NCBI RefSeq assembly: GCF_003334815.1
Contig: NZ_QOWO01000005.1
Reading direction: 5' to 3' (one strand)
From: Escherichia coli
Lineage (GTDB): Bacteria > Pseudomonadota > Gammaproteobacteria > Enterobacterales > Enterobacteriaceae
Length of the DNA: 64,000 nucleotides
The notes beneath the pieces were generated by a model. The model did not search any database, had not been told where the DNA came from, and saw only the letters and a program-made list of their open reading frames with translations. The position numbers and the translations under genes are program-made. Below are positions 45,548-50,057 of this stretch, piece after piece. The stretch's first letter is position 1; the number at the start of each line of letters is the position of its first letter.

Positions 45548-47134
45548 ATGGCACATCCACCACGGCTTAATGACGACAAACCGGTTATCTGGACGGTATC
45601 TGTAACGCGCCTGTTCGAGCTGTTTCGCGATATCAGCCTCGAGTTTGATCACCTGGCGAACATTACCCCTATTCAGCTTGGCTTTGAAAAAGCAGTGACC
45701 TACATCCGCAAGAAACTGGCAAACGAACGCTGTGACGCCATCATCGCGGCTGGCTCTAACGGCGCGTACCTGAAAAGCCGCCTGTCAGTGCCAGTTATTT
45801 TGATTAAACCGAGCGGCTACGATGTGTTACAGGCACTGGCAAAAGCCGGAAAACTCACCTCTTCTATCGGCGTTGTCACCTATCAGGAAACCATTCCAGC
45901 GCTGGTGGCGTTTCAAAAAACCTTTAATTTGCGCCTCGACCAACGTAGCTACATTACCGAGGAAGACGCACGCGGGCAGATTAACGAGCTAAAAGCTAAC
46001 GGCACCGAAGCGGTGGTCGGCGCAGGGCTGATTACCGATTTGGCAGAAGAAGCCGGAATGACCGGAATTTTTATCTATTCCGCCGCCACCGTGCGCCAGG
46101 CGTTCAGCGATGCGCTGGATATGACGCGCATGTCGTTACGCCATAACACTCACGATGCCACCCGCAACGCCCTGCGTACTCGTTACGTGCTGGGCGATAT
46201 GCTCGGTCAATCACCACAGATGGAACAAGTACGGCAGACTATTTTGCTGTATGCCCGCTCCAGTGCGGCGGTGTTGATTGAGGGGGAAACGGGGACGGGC
46301 AAAGAGCTGGCGGCCCAGGCGATTCATCGGGAATATTTTGCCCGCCACGATGCGCGACAGGGCAAAAAGTCGCATCCGTTTGTTGCCGTCAACTGCGGGG
46401 CGATTGCCGAATCGCTGCTGGAAGCAGAACTGTTTGGCTATGAGGAAGGGGCGTTTACCGGCTCGCGACGCGGAGGTCGCGCCGGGCTGTTCGAAATTGC
46501 CCACGGCGGTACGCTGTTTCTGGATGAGATTGGCGAAATGCCGCTACCTTTGCAGACCCGGCTGCTGCGGGTGCTGGAAGAAAAAGAGGTCACCCGCGTC
46601 GGCGGGCATCAGCCTGTTCCGGTAGATGTACGGGTCATTAGCGCCACTCACTGCAATCTGGAAGAAGATATGCAGCAAGGACGTTTTCGCCGTGATCTGT
46701 TTTATCGGCTGAGTATTTTGCGTCTGCAATTGCCACCACTGCGCGAGCGGGTGGCGGATATTCTTCCGCTGGCGGAAAGCTTTTTGAAAGTGTCTCTGGC
46801 GGCGCTCTCCGCCCCATTTTCTGCTGCATTACGCCAGGGGTTACAGGCAAGTGAAACTGTGCTGCTGCACTACGACTGGCCAGGCAATATTCGTGAACTG
46901 CGCAATATGATGGAACGACTGGCGCTGTTTTTAAGTGTGGAACCGACGCCGGATTTAACGCCGCAGTTTATGCAACTGCTACTGCCGGAACTGGCGCGCG
47001 AGTCGGCGAAAACTCCCGCTCCACGCTTACTGACACCACAACAGGCACTGGAGAAATTTAATGGCGATAAAACAGCAGCGGCGAATTATTTAGGCATCAG
47101 CCGGACGACGTTCTGGCGGCGGCTGAAAAGCTGA
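45548..47134 (+). CDS. prpR: Sigma-54-dependent activator of the prp operon
   Basis: ORF track 45536..47134; start [15 protein letters not shown] at ATG 45548 gives 528 aa; Walker [15 protein letters not shown] motif, C-terminal HTH. Confidence 0.9.
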
Positions 47135-47136
47135 AC

Positions 47137-47169
47137 TGCCGAATGCAGCGCGAACGCTTTATCCGGCAT
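47137..47169. repeat. REP-like palindrome between prpR and yahO
   Basis: tgccgaatgcagcgcgaacgctttatccggcat. Confidence 0.55.
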
Positions 47170-47231: not shown

Positions 47232-47507
47232 TTACTTCTTCTTATAAATATTTGCCGTGCCGTGGATCTTATTGTCAGTTTGACCGGAGGTCAGTACCAA
47301 CACATCAGCCCCTTTTTCATCCGCTTTTTTGATCAAATCTTCTTTTGCATCTGCAGTCGACATTTCATTGCTGGTTGAAATATCACCTATTTTTTCATAC
47401 TGCGATTCAACTTTTTCAAATTCCGCTTTGGTCATCAATTCAGCGGCATAGACATTGGTAACGGCTAACGCTAACGCACCGACTAACATTTTAGAGATTA
47501 TTTTCAT
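47232..47507 (-). CDS. yahO: DUF1471-family small periplasmic protein
   Basis: 91 aa with signal peptide [22 protein letters not shown]. Confidence 0.8.
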
Positions 47508-48325: not shown

Positions 48326-48341
48326 GCAGATAATTTACTCT

Positions 48342-48587
48342 CTACGTAATCAACCTGATTTGCCGAATCACGGCCATCGGCGATGATAGCCCCCGTAATG
48401 CGTGGTCCTTATTTCCGATAAGTTTACTTGAGTCTTTAGCTTCCCATTTCAGCCCACTCTCCCCTGTGTGGGCTTTTTTCATTGGTCTGCCCCATCCTGA
48501 ATAGCCAAACAATGGCAATGTTCCACTTTGCAGGGATGATAATAAGGGGATCTGATTCAGAAGAGTTTTGAAAAGTTGGACCGCCAT
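48342..48587 (-). CDS. yahM: Small uncharacterised protein
   Basis: ORF track 48342..48617; start at internal Met (MAVQLFKTLL) gives 81 aa; no recognisable motif; weak call. Confidence 0.5.
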   Translation of the reverse strand: MAVQLFKTLLNQIPLLSSLQSGTLPLFGYSGWGRPMKKAHTGESGLKWEAKDSSKLIGNKDHALRGLSSPMAVIRQIRLIT

Positions 48588-48999
48588 CGAGGCCTCGAAC
48601 CCCGTACCATACAACAATCCTGGTTGTCGTCTGCTCTTCCTGATGAGCTAATGGCGGTTTTTGATATGAGCCTTACAGCATATTTTCTGTCAGGCTTGAG
48701 TGCGATGCGTAAGATACAGAAAAGACCCCACGCAAACATGATGGAATTATGATTTTTTTCATATGAATGTCAACCAACACATTCACAAAACATCTGCATG
48801 AGATCATTTTTTATACACCGCATGGCTGCGAAACCACTACTGGTGCTTTTTTAAGCGAAGTGTCGCCGATCACAACAAAATATCGGCGAAAAAAGAGATG
48901 GAATGCCAGTTGGCATACAGATATACAGATGAAATGATTACCTGCATTGCGATTCACTCTCAGGTGGAATAACAACTTGCAGGTGGAACCCTTTCTGAA

Positions 49000-49815
49000 C
49001 TAAAGAGTGTAGCGGATTTTAACGTGCTTATTTACAGGATAATATCTGTCACCTAATTCCTGCACTCTATTAGATATCCATTCATTTAATCGCGCATCAT
49101 CTCTGTATGTTTTTACGTCCAGAACAGAGAGCAATAACATCACCAGTGATTCAGGAAAAACAGGGTAGATATTTTTTAAGTGTAATAATAATCCATGCGC
49201 AAGCGCCTGCTTAATGGGCGCGTCTGTCTCCGGAATAGACGACATTTCGCGAAGCCATTTTTCCACATGCATACACTCTTTCCCTTTAGGGAAAATTCTC
49301 AGCAAAGGCATATGGTATTCAAGAAGAATACATTTGCAATCTGTTCGCACTGAATCGATAAACTGCACTAATTTCTTAAGCCCGGTAAAGCGTCCAGCCT
49401 GCACGTTTGCTTTAATATCAAGAAACGCATCATCCTGGTCATATACCCAAACTGTCCCTTTTTGATTTTCAAGTATGTGAAAAACAAACTTAACCGGGTG
49501 ATCAGGGTAATCCATCCAGTCATAAAATCCAGGGAAATCATTAAACTGCACATTTATGGTGAGTGCGTTATCGTCTGACCACTCACAGTCTCGTACGGCA
49601 GCCATGAGATGAATGAGTTTGTCGTCATCGACTAAATCATCACGACAATCATAAGGATAATCATAATATTGTTTAATCAAAACCTTGAATATATCGACAC
49701 AGGAAACCAGGGAGCTTTTGATATCCTCTGGTAACTGATTGTTTTTAACCGTATTAAGTATGCTTTGTTGCGTATATGGCATCAAATTATTGTGCGGAGC
49801 TTTTAATGATATCAT
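49000..49815 (-). CDS. yahL: Uncharacterised 271-aa protein in an AT-rich segment
   Basis: 271 aa ORF; visibly lower GC than neighbours; no motif I recognise. Confidence 0.7.
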   Translation of the reverse strand: MISLKAPHNNLMPYTQQSILNTVKNNQLPEDIKSSLVSCVDIFKVLIKQYYDYPYDCRDDLVDDDKLIHLMAAVRDCEWSDDNALTINVQFNDFPGFYDWMDYPDHPVKFVFHILENQKGTVWVYDQDDAFLDIKANVQAGRFTGLKKLVQFIDSVRTDCKCILLEYHMPLLRIFPKGKECMHVEKWLREMSSIPETDAPIKQALAHGLLLHLKNIYPVFPESLVMLLLSVLDVKTYRDDARLNEWISNRVQELGDRYYPVNKHVKIRYTL

Positions 49816-49984
49816 CGCGATCTCTCTTAAATAAAAATAAACGTCGCAGATAATAAAGCTCTGATTAAACCAGGCACTATCAGAAATCGCTCATAACTAA
49901 CGTGTGAAGTATTGTGTACTGGAGGGCGTTAATTTAACAATTTAAATTTACGTTATAGGTTTTACTGCTACTTTGATATTATTT

Positions 49985-50018
49985 CGCTCTCCTTAACTAA
50001 AAAGTTAAGTGGAGAGCG
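49985..50018. other. Near-perfect 14-bp-stem hairpin between yahK and yahL
   Basis: cgctctccttaact-aaaa-agttaagtggagagcg; about 40 nt downstream of the yahK stop; no flanking U-tract. Confidence 0.4.
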
Positions 50019-50057
50019 AAGTTAATATGTTAAACCACAAGGTATTTATTAATTTTT

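Follow-up and report, generated by a model that had tools for sequence, protein, structure and literature searches.

The region between yahK and yahN on the Escherichia coli chromosome appears to be a composite locus. It was studied in a stretch of 64,000 nucleotides (nt) from contig NZ_QOWO01000005.1 (the window), and three components can be separated. There is a real protein gene, yahL, an independent phage-derived tRNA-like RNA unit that appears to be under selection, and a pair of open reading frames (ORFs), yahM and xtpA, that seem to be spurious by-products. A probability of about 0.62 is given to this reading. As judged from sequence comparison, purifying selection within the locus is strongest on an 81-nt tRNA-like gene of phage origin, and this RNA gene, not the yahM and xtpA ORFs, appears to be the element under selection. 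The anatomy, phage ancestry, promoter, selection pattern, and distribution of the unit, as well as its convergent overlap with yahN, can be read directly from the data. The literature that was searched makes no mention of xtpA, of a tRNA-like gene at yahL–yahM, or of phage tRNAs with 6-nt anticodon loops; such work may exist beyond the literature that is searchable. Within that limit, the reading of the locus as an unannotated, invariant, phage-derived tRNA-like gene overprinted by unconstrained yahM and xtpA is new. The yahL and yahM genes and their low guanine-cytosine (GC) content are already known and are unremarkable.

The window corresponds to the yahJ–prpR region of K-12-like Escherichia coli in reversed orientation (ORF listing, megablast). 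The gene order is yahJ-yahK-yahL-yahM / yahN-yahO-prpR, and positions can be converted with MG1655 coordinate = 393,991 - window coordinate. The RNA unit is made up of the following features.

48577-48657, minus strand: 81-nt tRNA-like gene (ARAGORN; minimum-energy cloverleaf; phage homology; invariance)
48658-48739, minus strand: 82-nt leader of the tRNA-like RNA, with two predicted hairpins (RNAalifold)
48746-48773, minus strand: sigma-70 promoter, TTGACA-16-CATAAT, matching at 11 of 12 positions (promoter scan)

Anatomy of the tRNA-like gene

The tRNA-like gene is the only one in the whole window and has a GC content of 0.568. It possesses a perfect 7-bp acceptor stem (CCGCCAU/AUGGCGG), a 4-bp D stem, and an encoded UCCA 3' end. 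The tertiary nucleotides U8, A14, and G18G19 are in place, and the loop of the T arm, UUCGAGG, contains the UUCGA motif. The minimum-energy fold is a cloverleaf, and the acceptor, D, and T arms, UUCRA, G18G19, and CCA that define one are all present.

The anticodon arm is non-canonical. It consists of a 7-bp stem and a 6-nt loop, CCAGGA, with extra bases after the D stem, and the central arm of the Escherichia copy reads ACGACAA-CCAGGA-TTGTTGT. When a 7-nt loop is forced by ARAGORN (CAGGAUU), it has A33 and U37, and 5 nt instead of the usual 1 lie between the D and anticodon stems. Thus, the gene does not have the 5-bp anticodon stem and the 7-nt loop with U33 and a purine at position 37 that a canonical decoding tRNA has.

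Conservation across Escherichia

Ten sequences representing six deep lineages were compared, namely Escherichia coli (K-12, B2, O157, and others), L007/L018, Escherichia albertii, Escherichia sp. E1V33, L081, and L082. The synonymous divergence (dS) of yahN between pairs of these lineages is 0.23-0.89. All 81 of 81 positions of the tRNA-like gene are identical in K-12, B2, L007/L018, Escherichia albertii, E1V33, L081, and L082. The sole change was found in O157:H7, where a G:U pair of the T stem has become G:C. Variation is therefore seen in 1/81 columns of the tRNA-like gene versus 31/82 columns of the leader (Fisher p = 6e-10).

The tRNA-like unit was identified in 5,167 of 5,426 Escherichia coli genomes, versus 4,022 for yahL. 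Its surroundings are less constant. On the 5' side it is bordered, depending on the lineage, by yahK-yahL, yahK alone, yahJ, or a gene for an SNF2 helicase. In Escherichia coli the 3' flank consists of 250 nt of yahM sequence. In Escherichia albertii and E1V33 this flank is unalignable, and in L081/L082 only about 40 nt separate the unit from yahN. Citrobacter and Salmonella bongori do not contain the unit at the corresponding site, which indicates a single entry next to yahN in the Escherichia stem.

Promoter and leader

The hexamers of the promoter are nearly fixed across the Escherichia lineages, and the predicted transcription start site is near 48739 (MG1655 ~345,252). In a reporter study, the yahM promoter was found to be active and repressed by IHF (bioRxiv 10.1101/2025.05.13.653802). 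The leader is moderately conserved (82-99% identity). One compensatory pair and several one-sided changes that leave the pairing intact preserve its hairpins (RNAalifold). It was considered that the leader could be a decayed ileZ tRNA, and this was rejected as the local alignment score was no better than those of shuffled sequences. A terminator could not be identified downstream of the tRNA-like gene on its own strand.

Phage relatives

The phage relatives of the tRNA-like gene have 74-86% identity with it, and the similarity is confined to an element of about 85 nt (megablast, blastn). For phiP27, the E value is 4e-17. The similarity falls at the position of argN, the middle gene of the ileZ-argN-argO clusters of lambdoid and Shiga toxin (Stx) phages (phiP27, mEp460, Stx2a phages, and a phage-like plasmid). 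The closest matches are variants in phiP27, mEp460, and the phage-like plasmid that are unannotated or labelled 'tRNA-OTHER'. The 7-bp acceptor stem, D stem, T arm, and UCCA end are identical to those of the lambdoid argN-type tRNA. With the argN variants of phiP27 and the plasmid, the gene also has in common the extra bases GAAGAGCAGACGACA…GTTGT, which replace the normal anticodon arm.

There are differences as well. On the chromosome, the Escherichia copy stands alone, with yahL and yahN as neighbours, whereas the phage copies lie in a tRNA cluster of the prophage late region, between Q and the lysis/stx genes and between tRNA-Ile2/Met(CAT) and tRNA-Arg. The Escherichia copy has its own promoter and leader and no Arg anticodon, and its central arm was found in 0 of about 50 viral contigs.

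These viral contigs (L026-L075; pattern scans) contain relatives that are always located between tRNA-Met(CAT) and tRNA-Gly/Arg/Thr. They are labelled 'tRNA-???' by ARAGORN, with a two-base anticodon and a 6-nt loop. The whole family keeps the acceptor, D, and T arms, which hardly vary in the family alignment, partly because they were fixed by the search patterns used to collect members. The anticodon arm is free to change. Solitary relatives, surrounded by ordinary genes of the chromosome, are also present in Brenneria, Affinibrenneria, Citrobacter youngae, Salmonella diarizonae, and Pseudocitrobacter, where the neighbours are cytochrome bd-II-like genes (L015, L017, L019, L020, L022-L024). 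No integrase was found near the solitary copies in these other genera.

Two groups of known RNAs and sequences can be compared with the element. Species 1 and species 2 RNAs of phage T4 are non-decoding, have tRNA-like ends, and are encoded among phage tRNA genes. They resemble the viral relatives of the element in lying among phage tRNA genes, and they have no known function. They are longer than the element, which is fixed in a bacterial chromosome. The second group, ptwF, pawZ, and pauD, are pseudo-tRNA fragments at the ends of K-12 prophages. They are partial duplicates of host tRNA 3' ends that arose from integration, and they flank prophages with integrases. The tRNA-like gene is, like them, a phage-related, tRNA-derived sequence of the K-12 chromosome that would not decode. 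Unlike them, it is full length and has a promoter, and it has neither an adjacent prophage nor a duplicated partner.

Possible role of the RNA

The best guess for the role of the RNA is that of a non-decoding tRNA mimic. The primary transcript would start near 48739. RNase P would cut at the 5' end of the acceptor stem and so remove the leader, and 3' trimming would expose the encoded CCA. The product would be a stable L-shaped RNA with the acceptor/T/D top half of a tRNA and an anticodon arm that is unable to decode. A factor that recognises the acceptor/elbow half could have such an RNA as its ligand, decoy, or carrier. Mimicry of the top half is the likeliest mode because it is the acceptor, D, and T arms that the family keeps, whereas its anticodon arm is free to change. 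We infer the processing and stability of the RNA, together with its trans-acting mimic role, from these features of the sequence.

A more specific proposal can be made, and it should be taken as tentative and, in all of its parts together, somewhat improbable. Escherichia may have domesticated a phage tRNA-cluster gene, which would now be a core, invariant, non-decoding mimic RNA with an IHF-controlled promoter. Its action would be in trans and would depend on the acceptor/elbow half; in conflicts between phage and host or between toxin and tRNA, for instance, it might be a decoy or a carrier. It would then be the chromosomal representative of an undescribed 'tRNA-???' family, and yahM and xtpA would be by-products. 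Such a family is marked by its 6-nt anticodon loops, occurs in many temperate-phage tRNA clusters, and has solitary members in other Enterobacterales.

Transcription toward yahN

The RNA unit and yahN are convergent, and the 3' end of yahN contributes one further feature.

48326-48481, plus strand: yahN 3' untranslated region (3'UTR) and intrinsic terminator (weak Rfam terminator-like match; conservation)

The terminator hairpin, GCCCAC…GTGGGC followed by T6, is at 48431-48481 on the plus strand and lies inside the yahM ORF of the opposite strand. The yahN 3'UTR (~105 nt) and terminator are 84% identical between Escherichia coli and Escherichia albertii, even though the dS of yahN is 0.89, and the changes in the hairpin are confined to the loop. 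The layout of this 3'UTR and terminator is that of a 3'UTR-derived small RNA. The region is deleted in E1V33, L081, and L082.

Since there is no terminator after the tRNA-like gene, transcription would run antisense into the yahN terminator region. It is possible that the conserved unit acts in cis or at the level of DNA, either through its strong, unterminated promoter, which would drive antisense transcription into yahN in an excludon that controls the amino-acid exporter, or as an attachment site (attB) for mobile elements. We regard this as fairly unlikely to be the main explanation. The unit is always convergent with yahN and 40-250 nt away from it in every Escherichia lineage, whatever the other flank, and it has no terminator on its own strand. 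In addition, yahM-yahN was listed and scored as a convergent excludon by ExcludonFinder (PMC12288877). Antisense interference, however, requires a promoter and not 81 invariant bases. A cis role via antisense transcription into yahN may coexist with the role of the RNA and leaves those bases unexplained.

For a role as attB, it can be said that the sequence just 3' of the CCA changes abruptly between lineages, as it does at tRNA integration sites. However, neither an integrase nor an island lies nearby, the tRNA 3' end has no second copy there, and in the 5,167 Escherichia coli genomes the site is uninterrupted except by insertion sequences (IS). The 27-mer from the tRNA 3' end has a single match within 3 mismatches in the 64 kb, and no copy that could be an att remnant was found. 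Thus, neither the adjacent integrase-bearing element nor the duplicated 3' segment expected of a prophage-end pseudo-tRNA or attB is present.

The yahM and xtpA reading frames

Two annotated ORFs overlap the tRNA-like gene.

48342-48587, minus strand: yahM ORF, 81 amino acids, with no protein-level constraint (substitution counts, frame breaks)
48557-48739, minus strand: xtpA (b4845) ORF, 60 amino acids, overprinting the leader and the tRNA-like gene (annotated in NC_000913.3)

The ATG of yahM is within the acceptor 3' strand of the tRNA-like gene (ATGGCGGTCCA), and GAGG of the T arm forms a fortuitous Shine-Dalgarno sequence. The open frame reaches back to a TTG at 48617. Over its last two-thirds, yahM runs antisense to the 3'UTR of yahN and its terminator hairpin. 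Six Escherichia coli alleles of yahM differ by 11 changes, one of them Q12* in O157:H7; every one is non-synonymous and 0 are synonymous. The gene is frameshifted in the B2 strain L078. In L007/L018, the frame is broken by indels of +4, -1, and -1 even though the DNA is 85-92% identical, and the yahM sequence is absent in Escherichia albertii, E1V33, L081, and L082. The xtpA frame fares no better. There is a TAG at codon 4 in L007/L018, Escherichia albertii, and L081, the ATG is lost in L082, and a 1-nt deletion shifts the frame in Escherichia coli L079 and L016.

The purifying selection expected of coding genes was therefore found in neither yahM nor xtpA, and YahM and XtpA have no family match in Pfam, NCBIfam, PHROGs, or PADLOC. 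It appears that both are evolutionarily unconstrained ORFs that owe their existence to the RNA gene and to the antisense strand of the yahN 3'UTR. They probably encode no functional proteins.

Several points weigh against this interpretation. The Rfam tRNA model (RF00005) gives no match at E <= 1 in 4.5 kb or at E <= 10 in 201 nt, and the z-score of the fold is only -1.9. The element is invariant in Escherichia, so its own helices receive no support from covariation. Several of the relatives in phages appear to have decayed (the T stem is broken in phiP27 and in L044), and the family may thus include pseudogenes. XtpA is named a putative transcriptional regulator in RefSeq/UniProt; the basis of the name could not be located and might be experimental. 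Expression of YahM and XtpA in K-12 may be compatible with the comparative data.

Some of these points would also fit an old lambdoid prophage relic that is now inert, in which case the functional products would be XtpA and/or YahM. The homology to phages, the non-canonical anticodon arm, and the failure of the Rfam model agree with this explanation, and both ORFs are intact in most Escherichia coli sensu stricto and are annotated. An inert sequence would be expected to drift, yet 81/81 positions have stayed the same between lineages whose dS reaches 0.89. The part of xtpA upstream of the tRNA-like gene has acquired stops and frameshifts, and the part of yahM downstream of it has been replaced or is absent. 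Dual coding fails to explain the invariance where both frames are broken. An inert relic is thus improbable.

The yahL gene

The remaining features of the locus belong to yahL.

49000-49815, minus strand: yahL, a 271-amino-acid, Escherichia-restricted ORFan and real coding gene (dN/dS, pN/pS)
48987-49821, no strand assigned: 835-bp segment (the yahL ORF and a few flanking bases) missing in B2-type Escherichia coli (junction read in the ST95 genome L004)
49816-50057, minus strand: AT-rich yahK–yahL spacer, the upstream region of yahL (composition, GC 0.318)

The original prediction had placed yahL at 49000-49815 (271 amino acids) and yahM at 48342-48587 (81 amino acids), and these positions are right; both ORFs are on the minus strand. 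Compared with the deep lineage L007/L018, yahL has a dS of 0.665 and a ratio of non-synonymous to synonymous divergence (dN/dS) of 0.167. In the same comparison, the dS is 0.62 for yahK and 0.70 for yahN, and the dN/dS of the neighbours is 0.03-0.05. The gene evolves several-fold faster than its neighbours. Within Escherichia coli there are 16 synonymous and 11 non-synonymous differences, and the corresponding polymorphism ratio (pN/pS) is 0.175. With a dN/dS well below 1 and a frame that is intact across lineages, yahL has the properties of a coding gene under purifying selection. These two ratios, and a dS equal to that of the flanks, indicate that yahL is translated, constrained, and long resident. 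It is a genuine, fast-evolving, selectively maintained protein gene in AT-rich DNA. The comparison of lineages indicates that its residence between yahK and yahN predates the deepest of the sampled splits and that it has been lost several times.

The original prediction saw no recognisable domains in YahL or YahM, and this is upheld, with nothing significant in Pfam, NCBIfam, PHROGs, or PADLOC for either protein. For YahL, a PDB sequence profile search was likewise without a significant match. The best Pfam match of YahL, SDH_protease, has an i-E of 0.0028 and was not significant, and tblastn of YahL against 50,697 phage records gave no match. When 1.84 billion representative proteins were searched with phmmer, only Escherichia fragments and variants of YahL were found, plus one full-length paralogue, P0020, from an Escherichia coli strain (26% identity, E = 3.5e-11). 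AlphaFold2 with a 5-sequence alignment resulted in a predicted local distance difference test score (pLDDT) of 46.9, and only the C-terminal helical part of YahL reaches 62-78. Foldseek searches of PDB and AFDB50 with this low-confidence model returned only YahL itself or matches with E > 0.1.

The gene for P0020 is at L005 8001-8828, between yjiH and an island. The products of this island include one protein like invasin/intimin, one like the TPR_3 class-II chaperones, and an SseC-type translocon of a type III secretion system. It is a weak hint, from the one locus of P0020, that the YahL family could be associated with type III secretion. A relation of YahL to the DUF2686 protein YjiC, the gene for which adjoins that of the paralogue, was looked for and none was found. 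There is also a database protein of 236 amino acids, P0013, on a 2-kb contig, in which 74 YahL residues (74% identity) are fused to a response-regulator receiver and Hpt. This fusion is probably an assembly or gene-calling chimera.

Distribution and loss of yahL

A query coverage of at least 80% was found for yahL in 4,022 of the 5,426 complete Escherichia coli genomes. Approximately 1,150 of the 5,426 (~21%) are without the gene and cover only 52% of the query. The 835-bp deletion is bounded by an imperfect 9-nt repeat, TTAAGAGAG / TTCAGAAAG. It appears to be a secondary loss because both AT-rich flanks remain, and the yahK–yahL spacer is kept in B2-type genomes without the yahL ORF (read in the ST95 genome L004). 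There is no yahL in Escherichia albertii, Escherichia sp. E1V33, or two further Escherichia lineages. A check of presence and absence had been suggested with the original prediction, and it shows that yahL is indeed patchy.

YahL has been described, along with YdjO and YjfZ, as a conserved signature protein of Escherichia coli/Shigella that is specific to this group and of unknown function (PMC11057252). The searches made here agree that YahL is restricted to Escherichia. They differ in that YahL is not universal, as ~21% of complete genomes carry the deletion, and in that it is also present in a deep Escherichia lineage (79% identity) and has the one 26% paralogue. Quantitative PCR markers for Escherichia coli that are based on YahL would miss about one-fifth of complete genomes, the configuration of the ST95 (B2-type) strain that was examined.

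Base composition and acquisition

The GC content of 48342-49815 is 0.412, which is among the lowest 5% of 1474-nt windows within the 64 kb. It is 0.388 for yahL (0.39 at third codon positions, GC3) and 0.318 for the yahK–yahL spacer. For comparison, it is 0.534 for yahK, 0.563 for yahJ, 0.553 for prpR, and 0.520 for the whole window. For yahM, it is 0.467 (GC3 0.50), about equal to the 0.494 of yahN. Thus, the earlier description of yahL and yahM as one AT-rich segment is borne out by GC for the segment as a whole, for yahL, and for the yahK–yahL spacer, and yahM is ordinary. The real low-GC block is ~48700-50057, consisting of yahL and its flanks. The stretch 48588-48999 (GC 0.427), which had been taken for a non-coding spacer, is not one, for it holds the sigma-70 promoter, the ARAGORN-called tRNA-like gene, and the xtpA (b4845) ORF.

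Other patches of the window are equally AT-rich, at ~3650-6500, 10100-12300, and 60350-62500 (1474-nt windows, GC 0.38-0.43), so the yahL block is not unique. The GC content of yahO (47232-47507) is also 0.388. Insertions of IS1, IS5, IS3, and ISApl1 recur in or beside yahL and yahM (Escherichia coli genomes H1, H4, H22, and H56), and the AT-rich block is consistent with a tolerated landing site.

The composition had led to the suggestion of horizontal acquisition. This is supported in part, by the atypical composition, the patchy accessory distribution, and the phage-derived tRNA homologue. A recent acquisition is not supported. The dS of yahL (0.665) matches that of yahK (0.62) and yahN (0.70), and any transfer of yahL would therefore be ancient. 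Of the other marks of an acquired islet, mobility genes, flanking repeats, and an identifiable donor were not found, and when the surroundings of the yahL block were searched for repeats or for a target-site duplication, only chance-level AT-rich matches came up.

It had also been suggested that yahL and yahM form a two-gene islet that might have a defence or toxin-like function. Low GC, ORFan proteins, and the patchy yahL would fit a horizontally acquired pair of this kind, defensive or toxin-antitoxin-like, as would the up-regulation of the yahM transcript in Shiga toxin-producing Escherichia coli adhering to epithelial cells (PMC7649339). This explanation is very improbable, as yahL has been lost independently of the yahM region, which B2 keeps without yahL, while other lineages that are without both keep the tRNA-like gene. 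The promoter and the RNA gene lie between the two, and yahM, with its nonsense and frameshift alleles and 0 synonymous versus 11 non-synonymous changes, is unconstrained. YahL, YahM, and XtpA match no known defence or toxin-antitoxin family and do not form a single inherited or transcribed unit. Mobility genes are absent, as are flanking repeats of any significance, and nothing supports a role of the ORFs in defence or as toxins.

Two observations concern neighbouring genes. A sub-threshold Rfam match to naRNA4, a REP-type repeat, is present in the prpR-yahO intergenic region (47095-47168, minus strand; 28.6 bits compared with a gathering score of 59.5). In the ST95 genome L004 (220-1806), the annotation treats prpR as a pseudogene interrupted by an internal stop.

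Implications

The reference annotation carries yahL, yahM, and xtpA as three uncharacterised proteins, of which yahL alone has the behaviour of a protein gene. The yahM signals in transcriptomic and promoter studies probably report the tRNA-like transcript. If the RNA is functional, a non-decoding tRNA mimic would join the core genome of Escherichia coli. It would link an RNA of this bacterium to a recurrent, unexplained member of temperate-phage tRNA clusters, and the role of these odd phage tRNA-like genes would become testable in K-12.

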